This document shows positions 28,450 to 53,659 of a DNA stretch of 64,000 nt, piece after piece. Location: the NCBI GenBank assembly GCA_017428495.1, contig JAFRQS010000032.1, positions 148 to 64,147 on the forward strand, read 5' to 3'. Source of the DNA: Bacilli bacterium (GTDB lineage Bacteria; Bacillota_I; Bacilli_A; RF39; UBA660). Position numbers and translations under genes: made by a program. Below the pieces are notes generated by a model. It saw nothing but the letters and a program-made list of their open reading frames with translations. It made no database searches and was not told the DNA's origin. Each line of letters begins with the position of its first letter. Position 1 is the first letter of the stretch.

Positions 28450-28472
28450 AGGGATTTCAAAATGAAATCCCT
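28450..28472 (+). other. Intercistronic hairpin
   Basis: agggatttca-aaa-tgaaatccct, 10-bp perfect stem, no U-tract. Confidence 0.6.
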
Positions 28473-28492
28473 TATATAAAAAGGAGTTTTTT

Positions 28493-31622: not shown

Positions 31623-31645
31623 TATTTGATTAGAAAGGAAGTAGT

Positions 31646-32836: not shown

Positions 32837-32851
32837 TTTAAAGGAGGAAAT

Positions 32852-36376: not shown

Positions 36377-37653
36377 AAAAATTAACAAGATTAATATTAA
36401 TAATAGTTTTATCTTTTATTACAAATTGTTATGCAGATAGCATAGTACTTGATAATAAGATATCCGATAATAGTGAATTTATAACAGAAGTAGATATAAC
36501 ATCTGTAGATAATATTGATAATTTAAAATATTATAAAAATGTAAAAAAAATAAATATTAGAAATGTTGTAATAGATGATATAAGTTTTTTAAATGATTTA
36601 AATAATTTAGATAGTATAGTAGTATTTTATAGTAAAGTAAATTTATCAAAATTAAATAATATTCATATTAAAGAAATGACATTCATAAATTCATACATTG
36701 TAAATGATAATTTTACACCATTGATAAATACAAGTATTAAAAGATTGGATTTAGAAGGTAGTTATGTTACCAGTATTTATACATTAAAAAATATTGTTTC
36801 ATTAGAAGAACTATATTTAAATTCAATTAGTAATTTAAGAAGTTTGGAACCTATCACTAATCTTCCAAAATTAAAGAAATTAGATTTTGGAGGTTCTGAA
36901 GAATTAGTAAATAAAAAAGTATTAGATTATATAAGAGAAAAGAATATAGTTGGTACAAACTATGATGTAACTCAATATATGTTTTTAAATAGAGAGCTAG
37001 ATACTAAATTAAATGAAATAATTAAAAGTTTAAAATTAGATAATCTAACTGATTTAGAAAAAATAAAGAAAATAACTACATATGTTATTGATAATATAAA
37101 ATATGATGATGATTGTGGAATAAAAAGTAACTGTGAATATAATGAATTAACATTTAACATACTTGAAAAAAGTTTGTCTGGTAAAGGAATATGTTACAAC
37201 TATGCCCATCTTGAAAACAAATTATTAAATATGGTTGGTATTAAATCATACTTAGTAAGTGGATTTAATAAAACAGGATTAGGGCATGAATGGGTAAATG
37301 TATATTTAGATAAAAAATGGTATGCAATTGATCCAACATGGATAGACACTTATGTAGGAGAGGACAAGAAATTCAAAACCACTGGCAAGTCAAAATTTTA
37401 TATGGTTGATTTAGAAGATAAAACTTGGAATAGTTTGCATAAGGCAGATGTATTACCATCTAAAATAGTAGAGCCAGAAAAAGAGATAATAGATGAAGTT
37501 ATAATTGATTCTAATATAACTAAAGCACAAGATAATTATTATACAATATTTATAATATCTATAATAATAGTTTGCTTATTCATATTAATAGTAATATATA
37601 AAAGAGTAGATAAATTATCTAAAAAAAGGAGAAGAAGGAATGTTAGAAAATAG
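36373..37653 (+). CDS. Surface protein with leucine-rich repeats and transglutaminase-like domain
   Basis: Signal peptide, LRR-like units, GICYNYA / HEWVNV / IDPTW Cys-His-Asp triad, C-terminal TM plus basic tail. Confidence 0.85.
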   Translation: MKKLTRLILIIVLSFITNCYADSIVLDNKISDNSEFITEVDITSVDNIDNLKYYKNVKKINIRNVVIDDISFLNDLNNLDSIVVFYSKVNLSKLNNIHIKEMTFINSYIVNDNFTPLINTSIKRLDLEGSYVTSIYTLKNIVSLEELYLNSISNLRSLEPITNLPKLKKLDFGGSEELVNKKVLDYIREKNIVGTNYDVTQYMFLNRELDTKLNEIIKSLKLDNLTDLEKIKKITTYVIDNIKYDDDCGIKSNCEYNELTFNILEKSLSGKGICYNYAHLENKLLNMVGIKSYLVSGFNKTGLGHEWVNVYLDKKWYAIDPTWIDTYVGEDKKFKTTGKSKFYMVDLEDKTWNSLHKADVLPSKIVEPEKEIIDEVIIDSNITKAQDNYYTIFIISIIIVCLFILIVIYKRVDKLSKKRRRRNVRK

Positions 37654-38644
37654 TGTATTGACAGAAGAAATAATTAAAAAATTATTAGAGGATAATTACA
37701 ATTTGAAAGTAGCAAGTGTTGAAAGAATAAATAGAGGTAGTGCAAATATATACAATATAGATAATAAGTATATATTGAAAGAATTTAGTAGTGATAGGGA
37801 AGTTTCTTCTATAGAAAAAGAATATAATGTAATAAAACATCTTGATAATAAAGGATTAAAAGTACCTACATATATTGAAACAAAATATGGTAATCCATAT
37901 ATAATATATGAAGGTAGAATAATAATACTTCAAGTGTATCTAGAAGGATATGCAATGCCAAATAATACAGGAGATTATGCTAAAACAATTGAATCAGCAA
38001 CTATATTGGGTAAATTAACTAAAGCATTAGAAGATTATGAATTAGATAGTACTTATAATGATTATCCATCAAAAGAGGCATTAGAAGAAGGCATTGTTAA
38101 ATTAAGTGATTTAATTAATAAGATTAAAGATGATAATCCATATAAAGATAAAATAATATCCGATTTAAAAAGAAGAATAGAAATATCAAAAGAACTATTA
38201 GATTTTAATTTTGAAGATATTAAAAAAGTAACATTAAAAATATGTCATGGAGATTATTCTGTACAACAATTAATATATAATGATAATGAGGAAACTGCAA
38301 TAATAGATTTTGAAACAGTAAGAAAAATGCCAATAGATTGGGAAATAATAAGAAGTTATAGTTATATAGATAAAGAATGTAAAGATGGAGTATTTAATTT
38401 AAATACATTTATTGATTATGTTAAAGAAGTAAAGAAATATATTAAATTAACAAAAAAAGATTTAAAATATATGCCATACATCTATATATTTCAATTAGTA
38501 TCAAGTACATTTGGTTATAAACAATATAATAATGATTATTCTAAAACGTCTTTATTAGATTTTGCATTCTTTAGAACTAATCTATGTAATTACTTATATG
38601 ATAATTTAGAACTAATATCAAAAGAATTATTAAATATAAAATAA
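37640..38644 (+). CDS. APH/choline-kinase-like phosphotransferase
   Basis: YILKE, CHGDY, AIIDFE; paralog of 48138-49109. Confidence 0.85.
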   Translation: MLENSVLTEEIIKKLLEDNYNLKVASVERINRGSANIYNIDNKYILKEFSSDREVSSIEKEYNVIKHLDNKGLKVPTYIETKYGNPYIIYEGRIIILQVYLEGYAMPNNTGDYAKTIESATILGKLTKALEDYELDSTYNDYPSKEALEEGIVKLSDLINKIKDDNPYKDKIISDLKRRIEISKELLDFNFEDIKKVTLKICHGDYSVQQLIYNDNEETAIIDFETVRKMPIDWEIIRSYSYIDKECKDGVFNLNTFIDYVKEVKKYIKLTKKDLKYMPYIYIFQLVSSTFGYKQYNNDYSKTSLLDFAFFRTNLCNYLYDNLELISKELLNIK

Positions 38645-38760
38645 TAAACACAAATAAATTATTTGTGTTTTTATTATTAATAATTGAGAAAATAAGATTT
38701 TGATAGTATAATAAAAATATAAGATAGGAGTGTATTATGAAAAATAGAAAAGCATTTACA
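38596..38760 (+). repeat. Direct repeat copy 1 (kinase 3' end, terminator, promoter, pilin start)
   Basis: Near-identical to 40051-40217. Confidence 0.9.
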
Positions 38761-40050: not shown

Positions 40051-40217
40051 ATATGATAATTTAGAACTAATATCAAAAGAATTATTAAATATAAAATAAA
40101 AAACACAAATAAATTATATTTGTGTTTTTATTATTAATAATTGAGAAAATGAGGTTTTAATAGTATAATAAAAATATAAGATAGGAGTGTATTATGAAAA
40201 ATAGAAAAGGATTTACA
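40051..40217 (+). repeat. Direct repeat copy 2
   Basis: Near-identical to 38596-38760, includes a copy of the last 49 nt of the upstream kinase gene. Confidence 0.9.
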
Positions 40218-40994
40218 TTAGTAGAATTATTAGCAGTAATAACAATATTATCAGTAATACTTATAATAGCGGTACCACAGATAATGAATACAATTAAAGT
40301 TTCAAAATTAGGGGCAATGGAAAGCAGTGCAAAAATAATAGCAAAAGATGCAGAAAAGAAATATTATATGAAGAAAATGGAAGATAAAAACTATGTGGCT
40401 GCTGGAATACCATGTACAGATATAACTAAAATGAGTAGTGATTATGGAAGTTGCACAATATCATATTCTAATAATGGAATAGCAACAGTAACATTAAAAG
40501 GTGCAACTGGTGGTAAATTTGATGGAATAACTTGTACAGGTACAAAAAATAATATGAGTTGTGTTGAAAGAGTTCCAGGTCCTCCAGTGTGGATATATGC
40601 ATATGGTAATATAACATCAGTAGATCAAGGAGTAGAAAATTATGCAGATTTAGATAAACAAATTTTTATAAGATTTAACAAAAATGATTTGAGTGAAAAA
40701 AATATATGTATAATGTATAAAAGTGCAGAAAGAAGTGGTGAACCTGCTTGTTTGGTATCTAAAGATACATATAATACAAGAAATAATGAAAATTCAGAAT
40801 GGAGTCAAATAGAAGCATTATTTGGTTCAAGTAACTGCGTTGAAGAAGTAAATTCTATAAGATGCTATGTTAGTTTACCAGAGTATTGGCAGTGTATTAC
40901 ATCTAGTAATAGTACAAGTTGTACCTTACTAAATCAAAATACAGAAGAAGAATGTAGTTTGAAATCTGATGGCACTGTTAGTTGTATTCAATAA
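40194..40994 (+). CDS. Type IV pilin-like protein with Cys-rich C-terminal domain
   Basis: KG-FTLVELLAVITIL prepilin motif; first ~125 aa homologous to 38737 gene, C-terminus unrelated to it. Confidence 0.85.
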   Translation: MKNRKGFTLVELLAVITILSVILIIAVPQIMNTIKVSKLGAMESSAKIIAKDAEKKYYMKKMEDKNYVAAGIPCTDITKMSSDYGSCTISYSNNGIATVTLKGATGGKFDGITCTGTKNNMSCVERVPGPPVWIYAYGNITSVDQGVENYADLDKQIFIRFNKNDLSEKNICIMYKSAERSGEPACLVSKDTYNTRNNENSEWSQIEALFGSSNCVEEVNSIRCYVSLPEYWQCITSSNSTSCTLLNQNTEEECSLKSDGTVSCIQ

Positions 40995-41002: not shown

Positions 41003-41030
41003 AAAATAGGAACAATGTTCCTATTTTTTT
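41003..41030. terminator. Bidirectional intrinsic terminator
   Basis: aaaataggaac-aat-gttcctatttt between convergent pilin and LysR genes. Confidence 0.75.
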
Positions 41031-41890
41031 ATTAATCCATTTAAGAAATATGATATTGCTATGCTATGATATTTATTATTGTTTGTAAGAGCTACTAATT
41101 CTGATTTAGGTAGTTCTTCTTTTACTTTTATTTCATGTATTCCATCTATGTTTCTACCAAATTCTCTTATAACCATTCCAATTCCAACTCCTGCTTTAAC
41201 AAAGTCTATTATGAAAGAATTTGATACTACGCTTAAGAAGTTATTAAGTTTATGGTTTTGATAGAATTTATTTATTTCTGTAGTATTAACATTTATTATA
41301 AAGTTCTTATCTTTAATATCATGTACACTTATTGTCTTATCTAATTTATCCATATAATCATCACTACAGAATAATCCATATGTTAAATCCTCTATTTTAT
41401 ATCTAGTTATATTTGAATATTTATTAACATAGTTATAACTTGAAATTATTATTGCTATATCTATTGCGCCTTCTTTTATCTTTGTAATTAAGTTATTGTT
41501 TGTGTTATCTTCTACATATACGTGTACATTTGGATGCTCTTTTGTATATTTTTTTATATACTCAATTAAAAACATTCTAAGTACTGTTATAGATGTACCA
41601 ATTCTTATATTCATTTTACCATCACTGATTATTTCATCCATAACATTTTTTGTTTCGTCTAATTGAAGCATAAGTGGTTTTACATATGCATAGAGTCTTT
41701 CTCCTTCTGTTGTAAGCTTAATACCACTATGGCTTCTGTTAAATAGGCTACTTCCAATTTCGTTTTCTAATATTTTTATTGTTTTTGTAATAGCAGGTTG
41801 CGAAATTAATAATTTTTCAGCAGCTTCTGTGATGCTTTTACTTTCTGCTACTATGCAAAAAGTTTTATAGTATTCAAAACTTATATTCAT
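41021..41890 (-). CDS. LysR family transcriptional regulator
   Basis: SITEAAEKLLISQPAITKTIKILE..LFNR..LTTEG HTH motif, 289 aa. Confidence 0.95.
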   Translation of the reverse strand: MNISFEYYKTFCIVAESKSITEAAEKLLISQPAITKTIKILENEIGSSLFNRSHSGIKLTTEGERLYAYVKPLMLQLDETKNVMDEIISDGKMNIRIGTSITVLRMFLIEYIKKYTKEHPNVHVYVEDNTNNNLITKIKEGAIDIAIIISSYNYVNKYSNITRYKIEDLTYGLFCSDDYMDKLDKTISVHDIKDKNFIINVNTTEINKFYQNHKLNNFLSVVSNSFIIDFVKAGVGIGMVIREFGRNIDGIHEIKVKEELPKSELVALTNNNKYHSIAISYFLNGLIKK

Positions 41891-41943
41891 ACTACCACCT
41901 CAATTTTTATTATATACATATAATTTTAATTGTCAACAGAAAT

Positions 41944-41958
41944 ATAACTAAAAGTTAT
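41944..41958. promoter_or_regulatory. LysR recognition site
   Basis: ATAAC-N5-GTTAT dyad containing T-N11-A in the divergent intergenic region. Confidence 0.7.
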
Positions 41959-42033
41959 GGATACATAAAAAATATGTATTTTTAATTTCAAAAATCATCA
42001 GGTATTATGTAAGTAGAGAGGTGATATGCGCGT

Positions 42034-42858
42034 ATGATAGACTTACATATTCATTCAAAATTTTCAGATGGTGATAAAACAATTCCAGAGCTTATAGATA
42101 TGCTTAAAAGAAAAAAAGTTGAATTATTCTCCATAACTGATCATGATAGTGTTGATAGCTTGAAAGTGCTCGAAAATATTCCAAACATTACTTATATACC
42201 AGGAGTAGAGATGAGTGCTGTAAGCGATGGTGTTAAGATGCATATCCTCGGATATGGTATAGATGATAATTCAAAGTTAAAATCTACATGTGAAATTATA
42301 AAGAAAACCAGAAAAGAACTTGTACTTGAAATATTAGAAGATTTAATAAAAAGGGGTTATAAATTTAGTGAAGAAGATCTAAGTTATTTCTATAATAGTG
42401 AAAGTTCTTGTATTGGAAAAGTAGAAATATCAAAGTTTTTAGTAAAAAATGGTTATGCTCTTAGTGTCAAAGATGCATTTTATGAAATATTAGGTAGATA
42501 TAAAATAGGACCTAGGATAAGGAAAAATGCTGAACAAATAATTGATGAGATACATGAAAAAGATGGTTTAGCAATACTTGCGCATCCTTTTGAAATAGTA
42601 AGAAAGCAAGGTGTAGAAATAGCACCAGTAATTGATGAACTTGAATATTATGGCTTAGATGGTGTAGAGGTTTTTACTACTAAACATAATAAAGAAGAAG
42701 AAAAGTATATGTATGATTTGTGTAGAAATAGGGGATTATTGATAAGTGGTGGTAGTGATTATCATGGACCACTTACTAAGCCTAACATACAAATTTGTGA
42801 TAGTGTGAAAGGGGATGAAATTAGTGAAAAGATTAAGAAAAAAAGAATTAAACATTAA
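42034..42858 (+). CDS. PHP-family phosphoesterase (TrpH/YciV-like)
   Basis: DLHIHSKFSDG, ITDHD, GVEMS, LAHP, GGSDYHG. Confidence 0.9.
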   Translation: MIDLHIHSKFSDGDKTIPELIDMLKRKKVELFSITDHDSVDSLKVLENIPNITYIPGVEMSAVSDGVKMHILGYGIDDNSKLKSTCEIIKKTRKELVLEILEDLIKRGYKFSEEDLSYFYNSESSCIGKVEISKFLVKNGYALSVKDAFYEILGRYKIGPRIRKNAEQIIDEIHEKDGLAILAHPFEIVRKQGVEIAPVIDELEYYGLDGVEVFTTKHNKEEEKYMYDLCRNRGLLISGGSDYHGPLTKPNIQICDSVKGDEISEKIKKKRIKH

Positions 42859-43861
42859 TGGAGTTCTCTTTAATATATATACAGAGGATGTTGAGGAAGT
42901 AGAGAAATATTTTAGTAATTTTATAATTACATGTAATGAAAAGGTAACTGCTACTTATAATATTTATTTTGATAGTGATAAAGATATATTATTATCTTTG
43001 ATAAGTAATTTTGATAAATCTAAGTCAGTAGTATTGCCTACGTTTAAAAATCAAATTCATTATAAAAATGGTAATAAGTTTTTAATAGATACAGAAGAAT
43101 ATATGTGTATTAAAACTAATGATAAGAATTATAAAATATTTGGTACAGTAAAAGGTTTAAGTTGGGTTGTAAGAGAATTATTAATAAGAGAAATGGAAGA
43201 TAAAGGATACTTTTATATGCATGGTACAGGTATTGAAGTGTTTGATAAAGGAATATTGCTATTAGGTAATTCTGGTAGTGGTAAAACAACTTTTATGACC
43301 AAGTTAAGTGAATTAGATACTAAAGAAAAATTTATATCTAATGATAGGGTATTTGTAAAAAATAGAATGATGCATTATTATCCACTTCCAATTATATATG
43401 CAATGGGAACTGCGAGAGCAAATAGAAATTTAGATGAATATTTTAGAAGAACTCAAGCATTAGAAAAAAGAAGGGGAAAAGATTATACTACTTGTGGAGA
43501 TGGTGCTAAGTGTGATGTGCCATTAAAAGATATTCCAAGAATATTTCCAAATATAGAAAATGTGGATAAGAGTAAAATTGATTTGATTGTATTCCCTAGA
43601 ATAACTGATAGAGAAAGGTTTGAATACTTAAGTAGTGAGGATGCAATAAGAAGATTAAGTGAAACTAATTTTACTCCAAATGATAGTGAAAATGAAAGAA
43701 AAGAATGGTTAAGATATAGAACAGTACCTATAGAAGAAATAGAAAGAAAGAAAAAAGAATTTCATCAAGAATTGATAAGTCATATTCCAATTATAGAAGT
43801 TGAATATACTAGGGATACTAGTAGTTCATATTTAGAAAAGGTATTAAAGAAGACTTTATGA
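42815..43861 (+). CDS. HPr-kinase-like P-loop kinase
   Basis: MHGTGIEV..GILLLGNSGSGKTT and ISNDRV, the H..G-Walker A..DD-like layout of HprK-related kinases. Confidence 0.7.
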   Translation: MKLVKRLRKKELNINGVLFNIYTEDVEEVEKYFSNFIITCNEKVTATYNIYFDSDKDILLSLISNFDKSKSVVLPTFKNQIHYKNGNKFLIDTEEYMCIKTNDKNYKIFGTVKGLSWVVRELLIREMEDKGYFYMHGTGIEVFDKGILLLGNSGSGKTTFMTKLSELDTKEKFISNDRVFVKNRMMHYYPLPIIYAMGTARANRNLDEYFRRTQALEKRRGKDYTTCGDGAKCDVPLKDIPRIFPNIENVDKSKIDLIVFPRITDRERFEYLSSEDAIRRLSETNFTPNDSENERKEWLRYRTVPIEEIERKKKEFHQELISHIPIIEVEYTRDTSSSYLEKVLKKTL

Positions 43862-44568
43862 TAAGTGTCATTACAGATGAAGTATCAAGTGATATTGATT
43901 CTTTAATAAAAATATTAAAAGATACAAAATTGGAATATGTAGAATTAAGAAAAATAAATGATAAATACTTGTTTGAAATAGATGCTGGTGAATTAAAACT
44001 AATAAGTAAGAAATTTGAATTGAATAATTATAAAATTTCATTAATAGATAGTCCTATTGGTAAACATAAATATAGTTATGATAAAGAAGATAAATTAATT
44101 ATTAAATATATAAATATTTGTAAGATATTTAAATGTAAATATTTGAGAATATTTACAGATGTTTGTGATTTAAAAAAATATAATGATATAGCAAAAGAAA
44201 ACAATATAATTTTATTAATTGAGAATGAAAAGGGTACAAAAGGTGAAAGTTATATATATTTAAAAGAATTAATGAATAAAAAGTATAGCAATATAAAATT
44301 ATTATATGATGCTGAAAATTATTATAGTTTAAATTTAGATTATATAGAAGCTTTGAGAGTGTTAAAAAATGATATAGTTTATATTCATTTAAGAGATGTT
44401 AAAGATAGTAAATTTGTTTATTTATATGATGGTGATATAGATATAGACAAGATATTAAGTATGATTGATAAAGATACAATAGTATCTTTAGAAACACATT
44501 TACCAATGTGTAGTGATTTAGAAAAAGAAGTTTTATTTAAAGAGAGTATGAGGAGGATTTATGAATAA
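43858..44568 (+). CDS. Sugar phosphate isomerase/epimerase (xylose-isomerase-like TIM barrel)
   Basis: ITDEVS, VELR, SPIGK, LIENE, YDAEN, IHLRD, SLETH. Confidence 0.8.
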   Translation: MISVITDEVSSDIDSLIKILKDTKLEYVELRKINDKYLFEIDAGELKLISKKFELNNYKISLIDSPIGKHKYSYDKEDKLIIKYINICKIFKCKYLRIFTDVCDLKKYNDIAKENNIILLIENEKGTKGESYIYLKELMNKKYSNIKLLYDAENYYSLNLDYIEALRVLKNDIVYIHLRDVKDSKFVYLYDGDIDIDKILSMIDKDTIVSLETHLPMCSDLEKEVLFKESMRRIYE

Positions 44569-45976
44569 GAATTTTTATGGAAATATAGATGATTTAAAAA
44601 AGAAATTAGATGGTTTAAAAGTTAGTTATAAGATTAAAGGGGATAAAATAATAATAGGTGATGGATATATTAAATTTAAAGAAAAAGAGTTACCTATAAG
44701 AAGTTTTTCTGTTACTAGATTTGCAGATCCAGGATTAGAACTTATGGCTGTAGATGTGGATTATGATTTAGTAAATAAAATATGTTTAGCATATTCAGAT
44801 TCTGAAATAGAATCTATTGTAAGAGATATGCCTGTAATAGATTGGTATAGTTCAAATCATAAGAATACATTAAATAATGTTGCTATTATTTGGAGAGATC
44901 ACTTTCTTGAAGAAAATGTAGGTTTATTAAATGGTTTTGTAAATATGGGTGTTAGACCTGAAAATATACTTGCTATCGATAAAGGAGATAGTACAAAGCA
45001 TAGATTTGAAATAACAGAAACTTTTAAGAAGATGGGATTTAATGTAAGTGTACTTGATAATACAGATGTAGATAATGAAAAGTTAATGAAAATTGGTGAA
45101 GAATTAATATTTGATTTTATTAATAAAAGAAAAGATTTAAAAGTAGTTGTATTAGATGATGGTGCTATAGTAACTAAGATATTAGATAAAATACATTTTG
45201 ATAATGTAGTAGGTGTAGTAGAGCTTACTGAAATGGGATTAAGAAGAATAAGACCAAATGAAGATAAATTATTATATCCAGTACTTAATGTTGCAAAGAC
45301 TAAATTAAAAAGGCATATTACTTATACCGAAATATCTAGCAGTATATTTACAAGAATAATAGAATTATTGGCAGGAGAAAAATTAGTAGGTAGAAGTGTA
45401 GTAATGTGTGGTTATGGGGACTTAGGCGAAATACTTGCAGATAGATTAAGAAGTTATGGAGTTAGAGTAACAGTAGTAGATGTAGATGTACTAAGACTTA
45501 TAATTGCAGCTGAAAGGGGCTTTACAACTTATAAAAACTGTTATGATGCAGTTAAAAATGAAAAACCATTTATGATAGTTGGTGCATCTGGCTATAAGAG
45601 TATTAGTGAAGATGTTATTAAAATGCTTCCTGATTATGGATATGTAACAAGTGGTGCTACTGCTGATCTTCATGCATTTAGAGATTTTGAAGCACGTGGT
45701 GAAGTATTTAAGAAAATAGATAAGTATGGAACTCAATATTATGTGTTTGATAAACATGTAGATGTATTAGGAAATGGTAGAAGTGTTAATTTATTTGATT
45801 CTGAAGCAATTCCTAATAAGAGCAATGATGTATTTAAAGCTGCTCAACTTCTTACAGTTTATAATATGATTAATAAAGAAACTCTAGAAAATAAATTGGA
45901 AGTAAATATAGTAGATGAATGGATTAGTGAATCAGGCATATTAGATAAATACTATAGTTTATATATGGAGAAATAA
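44561..45976 (+). CDS. Adenosylhomocysteinase-like (AHCY fold) NAD-binding protein
   Basis: LDDGA, VELTEMG, VLNVAKTKLK, Rossmann CGYGDLG, GNGRSVNL; divergent N-terminus. Confidence 0.75.
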   Translation: MNKNFYGNIDDLKKKLDGLKVSYKIKGDKIIIGDGYIKFKEKELPIRSFSVTRFADPGLELMAVDVDYDLVNKICLAYSDSEIESIVRDMPVIDWYSSNHKNTLNNVAIIWRDHFLEENVGLLNGFVNMGVRPENILAIDKGDSTKHRFEITETFKKMGFNVSVLDNTDVDNEKLMKIGEELIFDFINKRKDLKVVVLDDGAIVTKILDKIHFDNVVGVVELTEMGLRRIRPNEDKLLYPVLNVAKTKLKRHITYTEISSSIFTRIIELLAGEKLVGRSVVMCGYGDLGEILADRLRSYGVRVTVVDVDVLRLIIAAERGFTTYKNCYDAVKNEKPFMIVGASGYKSISEDVIKMLPDYGYVTSGATADLHAFRDFEARGEVFKKIDKYGTQYYVFDKHVDVLGNGRSVNLFDSEAIPNKSNDVFKAAQLLTVYNMINKETLENKLEVNIVDEWISESGILDKYYSLYMEK

Positions 45977-47424
45977 TGAAAGATTTTCATATTCATCTTA
46001 AAAAAGGTGTAACTGATTATGATGTGATGAAACAGTATATAGATAGGTGCATAGAACTTGGAATAGATGAAGTAATATTCCTAGATCATGGTAACAGAAC
46101 ATCACCAAATCATAAGCCAGTATTAAATAACAAAAAAATAATAAAAGAGTTTCTAAAGTTAATAGATAGAGCAAGAAGTGAATATAAAAATATAACTATA
46201 CATAGTGGTATAGAAACAGATTACTTTCCAGATAAAGAAAAACAAGATAATGAAATAGAACTTATGAATAGTGGATTTGATTATGTGGTATCTAGTGTAC
46301 ATGGAGTTAAATATCTTAATTTAGATGATACAGGATACTATAAAGCAATGTTAGATACAGTAAAAAAATATCCACTTAATATACTTGCTCATTTAAAATT
46401 ATATGATGATTATAAAGAACATGATAAAATTATTAATCAAATATTAAAAGAGTGTAAAAAGAAAAATGTAATGATGGAAATAAATACTAGTGATAGAAGT
46501 ATTTGGAATATAGAACAATTAAATTATATGTTAGATTTATTTAAAAAATATGATATTAAATACACAATAGGAAGTGATGCACATAAAGTAGGAGAACTAG
46601 GTGTAAACTATGATTTAATGTATTCATATTTAGATAATAAAATAAATAAAGAAGATAGAGAAATAGAGTATAACATAGTGAGTAGAGGAACGGAAAAAAG
46701 TGGTTCAAAAGGATATATGGCTATTACTAAGAAAATAAATAATTCAAGATATTTAATTGTTCAAGGCCATGAAAATAAAAATATAACTTGCTTTAAAGAT
46801 AGTTTAAAATGTTATGACAATGATATAGAAACAATTGCATTTTCAAGATTTGAGATGATTGGTGCTTTATCATTAAATAGAATTAATTTTAAAGACGATA
46901 TATTATTATGTGGATTAGGGAATATAGGAATAGGTGTATTAGTATATTTATTAGATAATAATTATAAAAATATTGATATATATACAAAGGATATTAAGCC
47001 CTATATAAAAAGCATGATAAGAAAGTTGAATAAAAGATATGATTCTAATATTAAATTAGTAGATGAAATAGAAGAACATGAAACTTATATTGATACTACT
47101 GGAGTAAGTTCTGTAATAGAAATGATTTTTAAAGATATCAAGACATTTAAAACAATATTTTTAATTGGAACTCCTAGAGAAAGTAAGTATTTTATAGATC
47201 CATTATTAATTCATAGGAATAATTTAATGGTAATTGGTGGACATGAATTAAGAGGAGTAGAAAAGACTGATAGAGTTGAATTATTTGAAAAGTTATTAAA
47301 AGTTAATAGTAGTAATGAATTAATAAAACAAATTGTTCACATCAATAGATATAAAAAGGATATATTTGAAAATATATTGAAAGAAAAAAATCATTTTATA
47401 GAGGTGGTAAAATATGACGATTAA
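45976..47424 (+). CDS. Fusion: PHP (histidinol-phosphatase-like) domain plus dehydrogenase-like Rossmann domain
   Basis: DFHIH, LDHG, GIETD, SSVH, GSDAH; C-terminal CGLGNIG, IDTTG, LIGTPR, IGGHE resembling the MDR NAD-binding half. Confidence 0.72.
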   Translation: MKDFHIHLKKGVTDYDVMKQYIDRCIELGIDEVIFLDHGNRTSPNHKPVLNNKKIIKEFLKLIDRARSEYKNITIHSGIETDYFPDKEKQDNEIELMNSGFDYVVSSVHGVKYLNLDDTGYYKAMLDTVKKYPLNILAHLKLYDDYKEHDKIINQILKECKKKNVMMEINTSDRSIWNIEQLNYMLDLFKKYDIKYTIGSDAHKVGELGVNYDLMYSYLDNKINKEDREIEYNIVSRGTEKSGSKGYMAITKKINNSRYLIVQGHENKNITCFKDSLKCYDNDIETIAFSRFEMIGALSLNRINFKDDILLCGLGNIGIGVLVYLLDNNYKNIDIYTKDIKPYIKSMIRKLNKRYDSNIKLVDEIEEHETYIDTTGVSSVIEMIFKDIKTFKTIFLIGTPRESKYFIDPLLIHRNNLMVIGGHELRGVEKTDRVELFEKLLKVNSSNELIKQIVHINRYKKDIFENILKEKNHFIEVVKYDD

Positions 47425-48169
47425 TATTAAAAATATTTTAATCAATGTAGATAGCACTTTCGATATAGTCTTTAATAGATTAAAACAATTTGAAATAAGT
47501 GATGTTAGTACTGATAATAAGATAATAATTAATGATAATTTGATAGATATATCTGTGTTAGATTATAAATTAAAGATAAAAGAAAAAATAAATACAACAG
47601 ATATATATCCAATACTTAATAATTTAATAGCGTATCTTATAAATGATGAAAATAATCTATATATTCATTCGGTAGTTATTAGCAAAAATAATAAAGGAAT
47701 TTTAGTGTTGGGAGATTTTAAAGTTGGTAAAAGTGCACTTGCTATAGAAGCACAGAATTATGGATATGAAGTTAATTCTGCAGATCAGACATGGATTAAA
47801 ACTAATGAGATGGTTCTTGGAAGTTCATTTAATAAGGATAAAAATGGGATATCATTTCTAGATAAAAAAAATGTAAATAAAAAGGTAAAATTAGAAAGAA
47901 TAATTATATTAAAGGGGATATCAACAAATGGAGAATTAAGTATCCAAAAGATAGAAAATAGAGATTATTATGTTAAGAATATATTTAGATATTCTAATTG
48001 GCATTATGATATGCCACTACTTACAAAATATATTAAGCTAAAAGATACAGGGGAAAAAATATTAAAATTTATAAATAAATTAAATATTGAAGCTTATTTC
48101 ATTTGTGGTGATGAAAGAAAAATTATGGAGGCTATTTGTGATAGAAAAGAAGGTATTAAACAAGACTAA
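47414..48169 (+). CDS. Second, divergent HPr-kinase-like protein
   Basis: IHSVVISKNNKGILVLGDFKVGKSAL and SADQT. Confidence 0.6.
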   Translation: MTINIKNILINVDSTFDIVFNRLKQFEISDVSTDNKIIINDNLIDISVLDYKLKIKEKINTTDIYPILNNLIAYLINDENNLYIHSVVISKNNKGILVLGDFKVGKSALAIEAQNYGYEVNSADQTWIKTNEMVLGSSFNKDKNGISFLDKKNVNKKVKLERIIILKGISTNGELSIQKIENRDYYVKNIFRYSNWHYDMPLLTKYIKLKDTGEKILKFINKLNIEAYFICGDERKIMEAICDRKEGIKQD

Positions 48170-49109
48170 AATTAAAAAGATATTTAAAGATTATTATAAT
48201 ATTAAAGTAAATGATATTCAGTTAGTAAGTGGTGGTTCTGCAGAGATATATAAAGTAGATAATTATATATTAAAGTTATATCAAAAAAAGTATAATGAAG
48301 AGCAAATATCAAAAGAAGTAAATGTAATTAATTATTTAAAAAATAGAGAATTCAAAGTCCCTAATTATTTAAAAACTATTGATGATAAATATTTAGTAAA
48401 AGTAGATGATAGATATTTAATTGTACAAGAATTTATAAATGGAATTACCAAGGATAAATTTATGGCTACTAAAAAAGAAATAAAAGAATGTGGATATCTT
48501 CATGGACTTTTAGTGAAGAATTTAATGGATTATAAAGTAGATGATAAAGAAGATGGGAATTGGTATGATTTTAATAGTAATATAGAAAAATTAAATGAAA
48601 TAATTAAATTAGGTAATAATAAATTAATTGTCTCAGATTTAAGTAAAAAGATTGAAATGATGAATAGTTTTGAAGATGATTTAAAAGATATAGATAAAAT
48701 ATCATACTATACATCACATGGTGATTTTAGTTATTTACAATTTATATATGATAAAGGCAAAGTAAATGCAATTATAGATTTTATAAGAGTAAAGAGATTA
48801 CCAATTGTATGGGAAATAATTAGAAGTTATAGTTATATGGATAAAAAATGTAAAGATGCAAAAATAGATATTGATAATTTAATTTTATATGTTAAAGAAT
48901 TTATGAAGAATGTAAAATTAACTAAATATGATTTAAAATATATGCCATATGTTTATATGTGTCAATTATTTAGAAGTACATATGGATACAAAGAATATTA
49001 TAAAAAAGATAACAATAATATTTTAGAATTTGCGCACTTTAGGACTCAGTTATGTGAATACTTATTTAAGAATAGTAAAGAAATATCAAGGAGGTTAGAA
49101 GAATTATGA
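48138..49109 (+). CDS. APH/choline-kinase-like phosphotransferase
   Basis: RBS ggagg plus GTG 48138; YILKL, SHGDF, AIIDF. Confidence 0.85.
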   Translation: MIEKKVLNKTKIKKIFKDYYNIKVNDIQLVSGGSAEIYKVDNYILKLYQKKYNEEQISKEVNVINYLKNREFKVPNYLKTIDDKYLVKVDDRYLIVQEFINGITKDKFMATKKEIKECGYLHGLLVKNLMDYKVDDKEDGNWYDFNSNIEKLNEIIKLGNNKLIVSDLSKKIEMMNSFEDDLKDIDKISYYTSHGDFSYLQFIYDKGKVNAIIDFIRVKRLPIVWEIIRSYSYMDKKCKDAKIDIDNLILYVKEFMKNVKLTKYDLKYMPYVYMCQLFRSTYGYKEYYKKDNNNILEFAHFRTQLCEYLFKNSKEISRRLEEL

Positions 49110-50044
49110 AAGATATTATATTAGTTGGAAGGGGTAAAGCTAGTAGAATACATACTATGTCATATAATAAATTTGAAAAAGTACCTAATTTATATTATGC
49201 TGATGTAGATATACCTATAAAAAAGATATTAAAGGATAATAAACTAGATGTCGATAATGTAATAGTTGATATTGTAACACCAAAAGAAGTATTTGTAGAA
49301 GTAATTGAAACTTGTGAATCATTGGGTTTATATAACATAATAGTAGAAAAACCATTTGTAATAGAAGAGGATTTCTTTAAAAAACATCCAAAATTAAATA
49401 TAGTTATGATTCAAAATTACATATATTCATTAACTACTAATTTTGTTAAAGATTATTTAGATAAGAATAAATTAAAAATAAAATCAATAATGACTAATTT
49501 TTCTAAAAATAGAATAAATGAAAGTATTAATATGCGTGGTATGAGTAGTAAAATAACAGAGAACTATGAAATAGAAGTACCACATCAAGTTTATATTTGT
49601 GATTATTTATTGGGTAGTAGAAGTGAACTATTAATGCTTGAACAAAAAGATATGCAAAATATTGATAGAACTTTAAAAAATCATGGATATAGTTTCTCAA
49701 TGCTAAAAAATAAAAACGTAATAATAAGTCATCAATGTGATTTAACATCTAATACTTTGCATAAAGGAATGACAATTTATTGTGAGGATAATGTAGTAAT
49801 AAGTGTTGAATATTCAATATATGATAAAGAATTAGCGTGTTTAAGAAATAGTAGAGTAGTTATATATAAAGATAAAAATAAAATAATGGATGCTGAGATT
49901 GTTGATGACAATATGTATTATTGTTTAAAAGATTTTTATGAATATTTTAGCGGTAAAAAGATTAATCCGGTATATAAGAAAAGAATAGAAGATTTTAGTA
50001 TAATAATGAAAGAATATGCAAGCTTTAGTAGTAAGTATTGCTAG
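49106..50044 (+). CDS. Gfo/Idh/MocA-like oxidoreductase
   Basis: LVGRGKASRIH, DIVTP, IVEKP, EVPHQ. Confidence 0.72.
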   Translation: MKDIILVGRGKASRIHTMSYNKFEKVPNLYYADVDIPIKKILKDNKLDVDNVIVDIVTPKEVFVEVIETCESLGLYNIIVEKPFVIEEDFFKKHPKLNIVMIQNYIYSLTTNFVKDYLDKNKLKIKSIMTNFSKNRINESINMRGMSSKITENYEIEVPHQVYICDYLLGSRSELLMLEQKDMQNIDRTLKNHGYSFSMLKNKNVIISHQCDLTSNTLHKGMTIYCEDNVVISVEYSIYDKELACLRNSRVVIYKDKNKIMDAEIVDDNMYYCLKDFYEYFSGKKINPVYKKRIEDFSIIMKEYASFSSKYC

Positions 50045-50052
50045 GAGGAACT

Positions 50053-51372
50053 ATGAAAGTTACAGTTGCTGGTACTGGTTATGTAGGACTTGTTACAGGT
50101 GTTTGTTTAGCACATATAGGTCATGAAGTCACATGCCTTGATGTAGTTGAAGAAAAAATTGAAATGTTAAAGAATGGTAAAAGTCCAATATATGAACCGG
50201 ATTTAGAAGATTTAATGTTAAAAAATAAAGATAGACTAAATTTTACAACTAATTATAAAAAAGCATATAAAGATGCAGATGTAATATTTATAGGTGTAGG
50301 AACACCAGAAAGAATAGATGGTACTGCAAATTTAGATTATGTTAATGAAGTTGCAAGACAAATTTCTGAATCTATAGATAAGGATACAGTGGTAGTAATT
50401 AAATCAACTGTTCCAATAGGTACTAATGATAGAATAGAAGAATACCTAAATGGAAATATAAAAAATGGTATTAAGGTAAGAGTAGCAAGTAATCCAGAAT
50501 TTTTAGCTGAAGGAACCGCAGTAAAAGATACTTTATATGCATCTAGAATTGTAATTGGTACTGAAGATAAGATTGCTGAAAAGGTACTTAAAGAGTTATA
50601 TTTACCATTAACAAAAAAGCCATATAATGTGCCATTATTATCTATGGATAGAAGATCTGCTGAAATGGTAAAATATGCATCAAATGATTTTTTAGCACTT
50701 AAAATATCTTACATAAATGAAATAGCTAACTTCTGCGAGAGTGTAGGTGCGAATATAAAAAATGTAACATTAGGAATGGGTTATGATCCAAGAATAGGAA
50801 ATAAATTTTTAAATTCAGGAATAGGGTATGGTGGATCATGCTTTCCAAAAGATACAAAAGCATTACATTGGTTGAGCAAAAGTTTAGATTGTGAACTTAA
50901 AACTGTAAAAGCATGTATAGAAGTTAATAAAGATCAAAAATTAAGGTTATTTCATAAATTGAAAAATTCATTATATTTGAAGGATTTGGAAGTTGCTATA
51001 TTAGGTGTTACATTTAAACCAAATACAGATGATTTACGTGATGCTCCTAGTATAGATAATGTAGAACTATTACTTGAATATGGTGCTAATGTTACGGTAT
51101 ATGATCCAATAGGACTTGATAATTTTAAGAAAAGATTTAAAGATAGAGTAAATTATGCAAGTAGTATTAATGAAGCAATAAAAGATAAAGAAGCTGTAAT
51201 GATTATGACAGAGTGGAAAGAAATTAAAGAATATGATTTAAATAATTATGTTAAATATATGAATAAAGCAAATATATTTGATGGAAGAAATTGCTATGAT
51301 TTAGATGATTTTAAAAATATAGATGCATATTATGTATCTATAGGAAGAAAAGATGTAGGAAGTTTAAAATAA
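50053..51372 (+). CDS. ugd: UDP-glucose 6-dehydrogenase family
   Basis: GTGYVG, KSTVP, NPEFL, GYGGSCFPKD, FKPNTDD, DGRN. Confidence 0.93.
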   Translation: MKVTVAGTGYVGLVTGVCLAHIGHEVTCLDVVEEKIEMLKNGKSPIYEPDLEDLMLKNKDRLNFTTNYKKAYKDADVIFIGVGTPERIDGTANLDYVNEVARQISESIDKDTVVVIKSTVPIGTNDRIEEYLNGNIKNGIKVRVASNPEFLAEGTAVKDTLYASRIVIGTEDKIAEKVLKELYLPLTKKPYNVPLLSMDRRSAEMVKYASNDFLALKISYINEIANFCESVGANIKNVTLGMGYDPRIGNKFLNSGIGYGGSCFPKDTKALHWLSKSLDCELKTVKACIEVNKDQKLRLFHKLKNSLYLKDLEVAILGVTFKPNTDDLRDAPSIDNVELLLEYGANVTVYDPIGLDNFKKRFKDRVNYASSINEAIKDKEAVMIMTEWKEIKEYDLNNYVKYMNKANIFDGRNCYDLDDFKNIDAYYVSIGRKDVGSLK

Positions 51373-51382
51373 CTTCCTTTTT
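51358..51382 (+). terminator. Intrinsic terminator closing the LysR-linked operon
   Basis: aggaagtt-taaaat-aacttcct followed by tttt. Confidence 0.7.
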
Positions 51383-51455: not shown

Positions 51456-51614
51456 ATGAGTATGGGAAAAGTAGTAATAGACGGAGTAGAAACTAAGTTT
51501 TCATTTGATATTGATGAAGATGAAATTGAAGTCAATGAAAAAAAATTAGATAATACTATCGATTTAAAAGAGGTAATAGAAAGCATTAATGGACAGGATA
51601 CAGAGAGCCAATGA
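51456..51614 (+). CDS. Small acidic protein (52 aa) not in the ORF track
   Basis: MSMGKVVIDGVETKFSFDIDEDEIEVNEKKLDNTIDLKEVIESINGQDTESQ; RBS aggtga; extended -10 tgatataat at 51422-51430. Confidence 0.65.
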   Translation: MSMGKVVIDGVETKFSFDIDEDEIEVNEKKLDNTIDLKEVIESINGQDTESQ

Positions 51615-52956
51615 TTTCTTGCGTTTAATTGCTGAAATATCAAAAAATGGCATATTAATTGATTCAAACTTAGTATATTCTAATTTAATTACTCTTGGAA
51701 CCGAAAAAAAATTAATAGATACTTACTTTACTACATGGCAAAACAGGGATGCAAATAATCCAAATATAGATGTATTTGTACAACCAGATTGGAAATGTTT
51801 TTGTCAATTTAAATCAAAAAATGCAACTAGAGACTTTGATGATATGCTTAAAATATATATACCCATAGATGAAAGTCATATTTATCATGGCGTAAATAAA
51901 ATATTTGATTATATTTCTAGAAATAATATATCACATAAATCAAAAGTAGCTACTCATACTAGGTTTGATGATTTAGTAATAAGAGTTGATGACGTTGAAG
52001 CATTATCGGATATAAGAAAATTTGTAGAAAATGATGGATATATAATTGAAGGACTAATACAAACAAATCCATTTGCTATTTCTGATGGTATGATTTCATT
52101 CGCATGGGATGGTGATTTATCATATAATAGGGTAGTGTCAGAATGGATTAGTGAATATATCAATTCGATGCAAAATAATTTGGATGCTATTTCTTATGAT
52201 TCATTTATTGATTATGTAGGAAAACAATATGAAGAAGTATTCGAACAAGGACAAGGTATAAATTCATTTTATAGAAGTAGAAAGATTAATAATAGTATTA
52301 ATGATCTTGTAAATTATCAAAGAATTACAGAGTTATTACTTATATCGCTACAAAGAGATAGTAAATTATCGGATTTATATAAATTTTATGAGTATGTTAA
52401 ATCACCGTATAGTAAAACAGAGGCATATGAAAATATAAAAAGACTAAAAAATAAAGATTCTTTGATAGTAGAAGAAATACCAGATGATGTAAAAGAAGCA
52501 TTTGATTATGCATTTTTACAAATTTCTACAAAAGAGAGCCCAGAAGCAGCGGTATTACGTTTTAAAAAATTTGTAAAAGATGGTAATTATGATTTGTTTA
52601 CTAGAACTAATGGAGTTAGAGCTCTTATGCAGGAGACAATTAATATTCCTTTCATAAATAGAATAATATATGAAGAACAAAAATCAGCGCTCATATCTTC
52701 ATCTTTAGAAACATTAAAAAAGTATGATACTATTCAATTAGGAAGAGCAATATTTGGTGTAGAAAATAATGATTATCGAAGTTTTACTAGTAGTAATGGT
52801 GCTAGAGAAAGATTAAGGCTTTGGGTAAGACCAGATGAGGTTTCAAATGTTGTTAAAAATATATTAATAGAAGAAGGATATACAGATATAAAACCATATG
52901 AGGAATATTGGGTATTTATGGAAATGATATCAAAATTAAATGGTAAAAGTAAATAA
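51589..52956 (+). CDS. Hypothetical protein
   Basis: 455-aa ORF; KIYIP..HKSKV..RFDDLVIR core; internal repeat GNYDLFTRTNGVR / NDYRSFTSSNGAR. Confidence 0.75.
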   Translation: MDRIQRANDFLRLIAEISKNGILIDSNLVYSNLITLGTEKKLIDTYFTTWQNRDANNPNIDVFVQPDWKCFCQFKSKNATRDFDDMLKIYIPIDESHIYHGVNKIFDYISRNNISHKSKVATHTRFDDLVIRVDDVEALSDIRKFVENDGYIIEGLIQTNPFAISDGMISFAWDGDLSYNRVVSEWISEYINSMQNNLDAISYDSFIDYVGKQYEEVFEQGQGINSFYRSRKINNSINDLVNYQRITELLLISLQRDSKLSDLYKFYEYVKSPYSKTEAYENIKRLKNKDSLIVEEIPDDVKEAFDYAFLQISTKESPEAAVLRFKKFVKDGNYDLFTRTNGVRALMQETINIPFINRIIYEEQKSALISSSLETLKKYDTIQLGRAIFGVENNDYRSFTSSNGARERLRLWVRPDEVSNVVKNILIEEGYTDIKPYEEYWVFMEMISKLNGKSK

Positions 52957-52966
52957 TGGAGGAATT

Positions 52967-53659
52967 ATGGGGGAATATTTATATGTAGCAACACAAATAC
53001 AAGAAGTTATGGCAAATATAGAGGAATATGTAATACCTGAAAATAGAGAGATTATCGAGTATCTTTGGGATATGAATATACTTACTACTCAAACTAATAA
53101 TTATGAAAATGAATTCTCATGGATACAATTAGGGGAACTATCTGAAGAAAATGAAAAAATATTTTGGAAATTAGTAAATGAAATGATGGATTTAGATGAA
53201 CGTACAGCGTCTAAGTTTACTACATATAGAGGAATAAGTGTACCAATAGTACCTGGTACAAGAGGTACATTTGATGATTTTAAATTATTAGTTGATCATT
53301 TAAAACCACAAGATGTTCAAAAAGATGGATATATGACAGAAGATGAATTTTTTATAAAAATGGGTTTTTCTATGGTTATTGATAATCCAGAGTATGGTAA
53401 GGTTCCTGAACCAGAATATGAAGATTATAATGATGTAAAAAAATATCAAGAAGCTTGTAAAAAGTATAATGATTCATTGATAAGAAGAATAACTGTTGTA
53501 GACAGAACTAAAATTACAAAACCAATAGAAGAGTATTTAGAAGAAAATGATTATAGCGGATGCTATGATAAAGAAGAAGGGAAAATATTCTATAATCAAA
53601 GACTATATGAAGGACATATGAGGTTCAAAAATAAAGAACAACCAAAAAAACACCTATAA
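52967..53659 (+). CDS. Hypothetical protein
   Basis: RBS ggagg; 230 aa; followed by terminator aaaaaacacct/aggtgtttttt. Confidence 0.72.
   Translation: MGEYLYVATQIQEVMANIEEYVIPENREIIEYLWDMNILTTQTNNYENEFSWIQLGELSEENEKIFWKLVNEMMDLDERTASKFTTYRGISVPIVPGTRGTFDDFKLLVDHLKPQDVQKDGYMTEDEFFIKMGFSMVIDNPEYGKVPEPEYEDYNDVKKYQEACKKYNDSLIRRITVVDRTKITKPIEEYLEENDYSGCYDKEEGKIFYNQRLYEGHMRFKNKEQPKKHL

Follow-up and report, generated by a model that had tools for sequence, protein, structure and literature searches.

This report concerns an operon linked to a LysR-type regulator at positions 41021..51382 of a 64,000-nucleotide stretch of DNA, called the window throughout, from contig JAFRQS010000032.1 of a Bacilli bacterium (assembly GCA_017428495.1). 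The operon may direct the biosynthesis of a nucleoside-type metabolite. The region is AT-rich, with a GC content of 0.21–0.29. Open reading frame (ORF) calling gave nine genes on the + strand, from 42034 to 51372, here termed g1 to g9, with the regulator gene diverging from them on the − strand. In order, they encode a PHP-family phosphoesterase, an HprK/PEPCK-type P-loop kinase, a xylose-isomerase-like triosephosphate isomerase (TIM) barrel, an enzyme resembling S-adenosylhomocysteine (SAH) hydrolase, abbreviated SAHH-like or AHCY-like, a fusion of a PHP phosphatase with a medium-chain dehydrogenase/reductase (MDR), a second HprK/PEPCK-type kinase, an APH-family kinase, an atypical oxidoreductase and a nucleotide-sugar dehydrogenase (Ugd). 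The eight junctions between these genes all overlap or abut, by 44, 4, 8, 1, 11, 83, 4 and 7 nt, the 83-nt overlap between g6 and g7 depending on an uncertain TTG start of g7. A terminator-like hairpin with a T run (51357..51378, + strand; 8-pair stem with 3 GC pairs, tail TTTTATG) overlaps the stop codon of g9, and nine such sites were observed in the region against 1.7 expected. The catalytic motifs are intact, namely the P-loops of g2 and g6, HxH in both PHP domains, HGD in g7 and E-D-H-E in g3. A preliminary description of the sequence had placed a LysR gene, nine coupled genes and a closing terminator here, and all were found where it put them. Its gene families also held for PHP, TIM, AHCY-like, APH and Ugd, but the assignment of g8 to the Gfo/Idh/MocA family has remote evidence only. 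The three kinase-like domains it counted are all present, but a fourth kinase gene upstream (37640-38644) had been overlooked.

Related loci were found by alignment searches with g4 and its relatives, and all ORFs in them were clustered. The 26 loci, each from a different GTDB species, together with the window make 27 sources; the loci are nearly all metagenome-assembled genomes of uncultured gut or rumen Clostridia or Bacilli, and since several are short contigs the family counts are minima. The AHCY-like family of g4 occurs in 27/27, the TIM family of g3 and the g5 family in 24/27 each, the g8 family in 23/27, and the APH family (usually in two copies) and HprK2, the g6 family, in 22/27 each. 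PHP1, the family of g1, is found in 18 sources and HprK1, the family of g2, in 16, with PHP1 immediately before it in 15. A Ugd-type nucleotide-sugar dehydrogenase is present in 16/27, a NUDIX protein in 14 (a second type in 7), an extended short-chain dehydrogenase/reductase (SDR) of the NDP-sugar epimerase/dehydratase kind in 11 and the LysR regulator in 5. The two halves of g5 are fused in 14 sources and separate genes in 10, where the MDR part stands alone or split off, and an MDR gene lies directly 3' of the g4-type gene in 22/27. The commonest order is an unassigned gene (c10, not always present), NUDIX, APH, PHP, HprK1, TIM, AHCY and PHP·MDR, followed by HprK2, APH, g8, an optional P-loop gene, SDR, Ugd and an optional histidine phosphatase. 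The co-occurrence of this core in the same order is far beyond chance and is not an accidental neighbourhood. The check proposed beforehand, whether the genes keep company in other genomes, thus came out positive for a core recurring in 22–24 of the 27 sources; the regulator (5/27) and Ugd (16/27) are not fixed parts of the set.

The LysR-type regulator (41021..41890, − strand) matches HTH_1 at 5.5e-18 and LysR_substrate at 3.6e-18. Between it and g1 lies the palindrome ATAAC-N5-GTTAT, ATAACTAAAAGTTAT, at 41944..41958 (no strand assigned), which is of the T-N11-A type and a candidate LysR box. Both the divergent regulator and the site had been proposed beforehand and were found; with the two protein domains, divergent transcription and a T-N11-A palindrome between the genes, the arrangement is that of a LysR-type divergent operon. 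The window contains one copy of the palindrome, where 0.24 would be expected, and at least one match was seen in 21/100 shuffled sequences, so its occurrence is not significant alone. The box is, however, invariant in 4/4 loci with a divergent LysR, in which the surrounding intergenic DNA diverges. A sigma-70-like promoter for lysR, matching 12/12 positions, stands beside the palindrome at 41936-41909 on the − strand, and a TATTAT at 42003-42008 is conserved in the intergenic region before g1; if that hexamer sets the start of the operon, the box would lie about 64 nt upstream. LysR orthologues take the same position in L001 (93%), L003 (72%) and L004, and with five linked cases in 27 the regulator is a variable part of the cluster. 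No riboswitch or leader was found for the cluster at gathering score in 7 related loci or at E <= 0.1 in window positions 30000-56000; the search returned only a T-box and a SAM riboswitch, both of which serve other genes.

The signature protein of the set is g4 (44561..45976, + strand), which appears to be an SAH-hydrolase-like NAD enzyme of the Her4/AnmB/HcdB type. It matches AdoHcyase_NAD (PF00670) at 5.8e-10 and is not an adenosylhomocysteinase by the model TIGR00936, where it scores 78 bits against a cut-off of 497.6. Profile matches in the PDB were to AHCY or S-inosyl-L-homocysteine hydrolase chains only, over residues 199-451 (best 7zd8, E 4.6e-24), and the NAD core of the SAHH type is kept, with DDG, ELT..G, K250 and GYGDLG all in place. 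An exhaustive search gave 1294 relatives at E <= 0.001 and 52 at E <= 1e-30, many of them 500-540 residues long.

When g4 was compared with plasmids by tblastn, ten records were returned, nine from Streptomyces (32-35% identity) and a weaker one from Kitasatospora (24%). The SAHH-like protein of one cluster, that of Streptomyces cadmiisoli (L028), aligns with g4 at 34.5% identity over 83% coverage (E 3e-62, tblastn). This 541-aa homologue stands beside a serine hydrolase, two Gfo/Idh/MocA proteins of 381 and 325 aa and a radical SAM protein, with an AMP-binding enzyme and ABC transporter genes at the same locus; six further loci, the last of them (L034) from Clavibacter michiganensis, have the order SAHH-like, Gfo, Gfo, radical SAM. 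Loci L028 to L034 were assigned to the herbicidin/aureonuclemycin type because this composition matches that of the hcd/her/anm clusters in Table 1 of PMC6794829, where the 558-aa 'SAH hydrolase' HcdB corresponds to Her4/AnmB, HcdC and HcdD are oxidoreductases, HcdE is a radical SAM protein and HcdH a beta-lactamase-type hydrolase; Clavibacter michiganensis is among the carriers of the cluster given in that paper. The homology between g4 and the SAHH-like proteins of these clusters runs the full length, the N-terminal region included. A 12-sequence alignment of the two groups has 45 invariant columns, among them RDH..E, DKGD.T and LDN in the N-terminal part, which have no sequence counterpart in AHCY, as well as DDG, ELT..G, Lys250 at the position of the AHCY catalytic lysine, GYG..G, AT.D and LG[ND]GRS.NL. 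At the g4 positions that align with two AHCY histidines stand Thr367 and Ile417, and the herbicidin-type clade likewise has Thr and Ile there; one of these two histidines is essential in the SAHH-like dehydratase AgmF, according to PMC8599513. In a quick maximum-likelihood tree of 43 rows, the clade of the window and the actinomycete clade branch as sisters (SH-aLRT 83 and 93), a quick search only, to which warnings on composition and long branches apply.

More distant AHCY-like domains, at 24-30% identity, are fused to SAVED, PRTase-CE, ORC-CDC6-like, AAA and cytidine-deaminase domains (P0216, P0251, P0261, P0266, P0267 and P0269), which suggests a separate use of the fold in conflict systems. 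The window operon might itself be such a system, making a toxic or chain-terminating nucleotide analogue, or depleting the nucleotide pool, on infection or in competition. Besides the fusions, this would suit the rare accessory distribution of the cluster, the NUDIX genes and possibly CYTH-like genes (c10, a reading of the sequence and not a family match) in relatives, and the position of the L026 cluster, which adjoins Cap15 and AbiEi/AbiEii. We consider it very unlikely: the 12 proteins gave no meaningful PADLOC match (two marginal P-loop/APH matches at E ~0.006), no sensor or effector domain was seen in the window, metabolic supply genes under LysR control fit secondary metabolism better, and the clade that unites g4 with the herbicidin-type proteins does not include the fused conflict-type relatives.

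The second protein of the herbicidin pair would be represented by g8 (49106..50044, + strand), an atypical Gfo/Idh/MocA-like oxidoreductase and, on remote evidence, a Her5/AnmC-type homologue. By itself g8 has no Pfam or NCBIfam match. When families were compared, g8 matched the Her5-like family, made up of the 325-aa Gfo neighbours, with an hhalign probability of 83.5% (E 8.3e-6), and the invariant motifs CTP, EKP, [NQ]Y, FSK[ND]R and E.PH coincide in the two families. The g8 homologue of L026 does match PF01408, at 25.1 bits against a cut-off of 24; the EKP motif is invariant in the g8 family, and the atlas neighbours of g8 are Gfo/Idh/MocA clusters (0.96). Natural fusions of g4-type and g8-type families exist, and the C-terminal half of one of them, the 898-aa P0140, aligns with g8 at a probability of 79%. 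A complex prediction for g4 with g8 scored 0.00, which was given no weight for or against the pairing.

A locus on a Streptomyces plasmid (L027, NZ_CP109456.1) joins the two sides. It encodes a 907-aa SAHH-like/Gfo-like fusion, whose halves are 47% identical to the SAHH-like protein and 42% to the 325-aa Gfo/Idh/MocA protein of L028. Around the fusion gene are genes for an HprK-like protein, an MDR-like protein homologous to the MDR half of g5 (probability 99%), an 'AP endonuclease' TIM protein, an APH protein and a second HprK-like protein of 394 aa related to g2 (hhalign probability 93%); the match of g6 to a 230-aa protein of this cluster has a probability of 25% only. Judged from these homologies, the core of the window operon is also found in actinomycetes, joined there to a fused protein of the Her4/Her5 type.

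Three further genes have the character of sugar-processing and supply enzymes. The product of g3 (43858..44568, + strand) is a xylose-isomerase-like TIM barrel of the keto-sugar isomerase, epimerase or dehydratase type (PF01261, 1.1e-10), the family of which keeps E124, D151, H177 and E212 invariant; natural fusions of TIM and AHCY-like domains are known in P0062 and P0122. In g5 (45976..47424, + strand) a HisJ-type PHP phosphatase of about residues 1-220 (PF02811 1.2e-13; hisJ_fam 70 bits) precedes an MDR-type sugar dehydrogenase of a trimmed type, about residues 225-482 or 46648-47424. Pfam sees the latter weakly, with Glu_dehyd_C at 0.01 in the window and 1.2e-6 in L019. A model of this half from a 9-sequence alignment (mean predicted local distance difference test score, pLDDT, 86.3) has the MDR fold with a Rossmann GxGxxG motif, and its top Foldseek matches were glucose dehydrogenase 2cdb, TarJ 6xhk and threonine dehydrogenase (E 3e-11 to 1e-8). 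An equivalence of this half to Her5 or Her7 was considered and rejected, with probabilities of 0.2-1%; it is MDR-type and unrelated to the Gfo proteins. The last gene, g9 (50038..51372, + strand), encodes a UDP-glucose 6-dehydrogenase with three UDPG_MGDP_dh domains, which scores 438 bits with TIGR03026 (cut-off 189.8) and is a nucleotide-sugar dehydrogenase by that model; it falls under the cut-off of the TuaD equivalog, 485.6 against 700. Its predicted specificity is the conversion of UDP-glucose to UDP-glucuronate. A cyclitol pathway, one of the options of the preliminary description, was dropped for want of specific support, as the set lacks an inositol-phosphate synthase or dehydroquinate-synthase-like cyclase and offers only an IolE-type TIM match at 1.4e-4.

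The presence of Ugd raises the question of a surface product. The operon could supply an unusual activated sugar, phosphosugar or nucleotide sugar, made from UDP-glucuronate, to a surface glycan, a teichuronic-type polymer or a pilin glycan. A Ugd-type gene in 16 and an extended-SDR NDP-sugar epimerase/dehydratase in 11 of the 27 sources speak for this, as do glycosyltransferases within the cluster in L011, L017, L020 and L026; the preliminary description had noted no glycosyltransferase, which holds for the window but not for these four relatives. In the window the cluster also adjoins pilin genes, two of the prepilin type with an N_methyl motif (427 and 266 aa; 38737-40020 and 40194-40994, + strand), each with its own promoter-like and terminator-like sites. 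These, however, are inserted between the upstream kinase gene and lysR and are absent from 26/26 related loci, and in L001 and L003 the kinase gene abuts lysR directly. The prepilin genes are a lineage-specific insertion outside the pathway, and the pilin decoration suggested earlier is not supported. GC content rises locally to 0.35 at 39000-40000, inside the first prepilin gene. Neither the window nor the common loci of type A contain a glycosyltransferase, flippase, polymerase or nucleotidyltransferase, four kinases and an SAHH-like enzyme are atypical of nucleotide-sugar pathways, and the closest relatives of g4 and g8 that have been characterised belong to nucleoside antibiotic pathways. 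A surface role is therefore judged unlikely, and a nucleoside-type product is preferred.

The remaining genes of the set add or remove phosphate. The gene termed APHup (37640..38644, + strand; PF01636, 3.3e-9) encodes an APH-family kinase that is a paralogue of g7 (39% identical). An APH gene lies directly 5' of the PHP gene in type-A loci, and APHup was counted into the set because the commonest gene order in related loci has APH before PHP; on this showing it belongs to the conserved cluster, though here it is placed in an upstream hisS-aspS operon. The phosphoesterase g1 (42034..42858, + strand) is TrpH/YciV-like (PF02811; NF041577, 7.3e-35), its best NCBIfam model being that of 3',5'-nucleoside bisphosphate phosphatase at 120.5 bits, under the cut-off of 400. 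Such a likeness would fit the removal of a 2'- or 3'-phosphate from ribose, and g1 and its neighbour g2 may form one phosphatase/kinase couple. The kinase g2 (42815..43861, + strand) has the Walker A motif GNSGSGKT and matches PF07475 at 2e-5 (24.7 bits), with further weak matches to FomB-type and HprK-related kinase B models. Its counterpart g6 (47414..48169, + strand; PF07475 0.0026, 17.7 bits) gave a model of pLDDT 90.9, the best folds being PEPCK 6at3 and HprK/P 1knx, and the two are paralogous (hhalign probability 96.7%). Neither is an HPr kinase/phosphorylase, as g2 and g6 score 24.7 and 17.7 with PF07475 against a cut-off of 33.3, and 25.5 and 16.4 with TIGR00679 against 240; they share only the P-loop/PEPCK-HprK fold. 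A role as kinases for ribosomally synthesised and post-translationally modified peptides was set aside, no precursor peptide, PqqD or maturase genes being seen at the locus. Finally, g7 (48087..49109, + strand) is an APH-family kinase (PF01636, 1.7e-5, with homoserine-kinase-type matches), the homology of which begins near residue 35 (tblastn alignments start at residues 35-37), so that its start codon is uncertain.

Around the fixed core the extras differ from locus to locus. Among them are GT1, GT2 and GT64 glycosyltransferases, acyl-AMP ligase, alpha/beta hydrolases, acyltransferase, NUDIX, extended-SDR and histidine phosphatase. L011, L017 and L020 add glycosyltransferases, an acyl-AMP ligase, alpha/beta hydrolases and an acetyltransferase-type protein, and L026 (5408-17879), directly after genes for Cap15, a CBASS-type effector, and AbiEi/AbiEii, has an AHCY-like protein 36% identical to g4, MDR-like and g8-like proteins, three glycosyltransferases, two radical SAM proteins and a glyoxalase. 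Natural-product clusters usually show this pattern, a fixed core with variable tailoring genes, and the extras were therefore counted in favour of a natural product. There is no conserved transporter across the related loci. The closest relative, L001, has a g4 96% identical to that of the window. In the window genome, which has 1,235,081 bases and is 93% complete, g4 occurs once, and in a sample of 200 further genomes of its family none gave a match at E <= 1e-20; the cluster is a rare and probably horizontally acquired accessory trait of a 1.2-Mb genome. The 10-kb operon takes up about 1% of the 1,235,081 bases.

Small genomes of this kind (1.235 Mb, 93% complete) depend on salvage, and the operon could serve the catabolism or salvage of an imported nucleoside, nucleotide or uronate compound, the SAHH-like enzyme removing a 5' substituent by oxidation-elimination, the kinases and phosphatases feeding central metabolism and LysR sensing the substrate. 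Divergent LysR control and the lack of an exporter would agree with this, SAHH-type chemistry is reversible (PMC8599513), and in P0066, one case on a single contig, a domain of the class II aldolase/adducin type is fused to an AHCY-like enzyme. But no importer or glycoside hydrolase was found in the window or the conserved loci, Ugd and the epimerase are supply enzymes rather than catabolic ones, relatives carry tailoring genes (glycosyltransferases, acyl-AMP ligase, acyltransferase), and with 0/200 of the family's other genomes searched giving a match, the trait does not have the look of a core salvage route. Salvage is quite unlikely on these grounds.

The reading that we prefer is that the operon directs the biosynthesis of a nucleoside-type metabolite, through a coupling of a nucleotide with a UDP-uronate of the Her4/Her5 type, processing of a keto-sugar and tailoring by kinases and phosphatases, and we regard the case for it as evenly balanced. 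Chen et al. reportedly described in 2022 that Her4 and Her5 together C5'-glycosylate ADP or ATP with UDP- or TDP-glucuronate by an SAH-hydrolase-like NAD mechanism. On this model Ugd (g9) would make UDP-glucuronate, which in many relatives an SDR may epimerise. With its tightly bound NAD+, g4 would by homology oxidise the 3'-OH of a nucleotide, whereupon the 5'-phosphate or diphosphate would leave to give a 3'-keto-4',5'-ene. The UDP-uronate would be activated by g8, and a C–C bond at C5' would join the pieces into a sugar-extended nucleoside of about C11. The metal-dependent TIM barrel g3 and the MDR half of g5 may then isomerise, dehydrate or reduce keto-sugar intermediates. Phosphates on ribose or sugar hydroxyls would be added by APHup, g7, g2 and g6 and removed by g1 and the N-terminal half of g5; such 'cryptic' phosphorylation may guide the intermediates or keep the product inactive in the cell. 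LysR is predicted to bind the conserved palindrome between the divergent promoters and to switch the operon on with a ligand.

This agrees with part of what had been proposed. A co-inherited, LysR-linked set of enzymes for a small molecule of the phosphorylated sugar or nucleoside type is borne out by the comparisons, and it is also true that no described pathway fits the whole set. Modified nucleoside biosynthesis is the best fit of the options that had been offered, given that g4 and g8 appear homologous to the SAHH-like/oxidoreductase pair that herbicidin-type clusters carry. Searches of a literature library that does not extend to subscription journals gave no paper on the gene set or on the family in gut bacteria.

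Several points weigh against the nucleoside reading. The Her4-type membership of g4 was set by the cluster composition of the Streptomyces and Clavibacter loci and not by a sequence labelled Her4. With the herbicidin-type clade g4 has no more than 30-34% identity, and the substrates may differ accordingly; the link from g8 to the Her5-like family is remote (15% identity at the probability of 83.5%); and no alignment of g3 with the TIM protein of L027 was obtained (probability 0.3%). The window has no herbicidin-type radical SAM protein or second Gfo protein, and no exporter, resistance gene or nucleotidyltransferase. The L001 locus is without Ugd, which means that UDP-glucuronate may not be obligatory, and the genome has no clear galU (best score 47 bits against a cut-off of 326.8). 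LysR regulators often control catabolic operons. The product, the enzymatic activities and the transcript of the operon are predicted.

As to the herbicidin clusters themselves, no radical SAM domain was found in any window ORF from 22302 to 55473, and the second dehydrogenase is of the MDR type. Lacking the radical SAM and second Gfo genes, the operon does not belong to the herbicidin cluster type, with which it shares what looks like the first chemistry. A wider proposal, which we put forward as tentative and somewhat doubtful, is that the Her4/Her5 C–C coupling module would be the core of an old and widely transferred pathway (SAHH-like, Gfo-like, MDR, TIM, APH and two HprK-type kinases), reaching from gut and rumen Firmicutes to Streptomyces plasmids, with the herbicidin clusters a derived offshoot. 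Gut anaerobes would then use a common nucleotide and a UDP-uronate to make a new class of phosphorylated sugar-extended nucleosides of about C11, whose role in the gut community could be that of antimetabolites or signals, and the HprK-fold proteins would be small-molecule kinases.

Contigs of 150–620 nt, 90–99% alike, from four sequencing runs match parts of g1, g2, g4, g5, g7 and g8/g9; of the four, two carry an RNA label and two a metatranscriptomic one although they are probably DNA, so that with possible DNA carry-over the contigs are not proof of transcription. At least half of the sampled words of the operon are present in 14 sequencing runs, and 20 rows holding it come from 10 studies of sheep, bovine or other animal gut, although 3 of the 20 may be the source sample.

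The neighbouring genes are of other kinds. At 22302-29602 are a polyamine-type ABC transporter, a putrescine/ornithine carbamoyltransferase, an amino-acid permease and an agmatine deiminase (PAD_porph 1.9e-120), which together look like the agmatine deiminase energy pathway. The stretch 31504-32428 consists of a SAM riboswitch (66.7 bits, over the gathering score) followed by a 260-aa ORF, in which only an N-terminal SAM synthetase domain was matched (8e-11) and which may be a metK that is shortened, divergent or broken. In the stretch 32648-37653, a T-box leader (32648-32816; 74.9 bits, under the gathering score of 93) precedes hisS, aspS, a CofD/YvcK-like gene and a transglutaminase-like gene; as the last of these overlaps the start of APHup, APHup is probably transcribed with these housekeeping genes and not under LysR. 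Beyond the terminator, at 51456-53659, lie a small ORF and two overlapping genes of 455 and 239 aa, common only to the window and L001 (59-64% identity). The two overlapping genes have no Pfam, NCBIfam, PADLOC or PHROGs assignment besides a sub-threshold DUF6108, and no PHROGs match was found for these two unassigned genes and the transglutaminase-like gene.

If the nucleoside reading is true, uncultured gut and rumen Firmicutes, including organisms of 1.2-Mb genome size that are not usually counted among natural-product makers, would hold a compact route to high-carbon nucleosides, and NAD-dependent C-glycosylation, so far tied to one actinomycete antibiotic family, would be in use in gut bacteria. 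There would be a new nucleoside scaffold to seek in gut metabolomes, new biocatalysts for the extension of nucleotides at C5', a first small-molecule role for two HprK-fold kinase families and some insight into the origin of the herbicidin clusters. At about 10 kb the cluster is small enough for direct testing by heterologous expression.

Compared with the early steps of the herbicidin/aureonuclemycin pathway (Her4/AnmB/HcdB and Her5/AnmC/HcdC), the window has in common g4, a full-length homologue that also has motifs specific to the family beyond the AHCY core; g8, remotely homologous to the partner oxidoreductase; and a linked gene for the supply of UDP-glucuronate. It differs in having no radical SAM protein (Her6/AnmE), second Gfo/Idh/MocA protein (Her7/AnmD), methyltransferases or serine hydrolase, and instead a TIM barrel, an MDR dehydrogenase, four kinases and two PHP phosphatases. 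Its host belongs to the gut Firmicutes rather than the actinomycetes, and the product is unlikely to be a herbicidin. The cluster on the Streptomyces plasmid (L027) is alike in holding two HprK-like proteins and MDR-like, TIM, APH, SAHH-like and Gfo-like proteins in one operon. There, however, the SAHH-like and Gfo-like proteins are fused, the operon has no PHP phosphatases, LysR or Ugd, and the SAHH-like part is nearer to the herbicidin-type clade (47%) than to g4 (33%); the cluster is uncharacterised.

Canonical AHCY/SahH shares with g4 the NAD domain (GYGxxG), DDG, E-x-T..G, the lysine at the catalytic position and GRxVNL, whereas the first ~200 residues of g4 are unrelated to it by sequence and the histidines of the hydrolytic half-reaction are not kept. 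AgmF of the angustmycin pathway is a relative of SAH hydrolase that uses bound NAD+ for an oxidation-elimination on a nucleoside sugar with no hydrolysis of SAH, and unlike g4 it keeps His56, Asp129, Lys184, Asp188 and His299, as described in PMC8599513. In g4, Thr367 and Thr/Ala254 align with the second histidine and Asp188 and the N-terminal domain is different, as in the herbicidin-type clade. In the sinefungin pathway, SinF and SinD carry out a cryptic phosphorylation in which, according to the preprint 10.64898/2026.05.21.726688, the phosphate is both handle and protection. A kinase and a phosphatase are encoded there, as here, with nucleoside-modifying enzymes, but the enzyme families differ, and the window has four kinases and two phosphatases.

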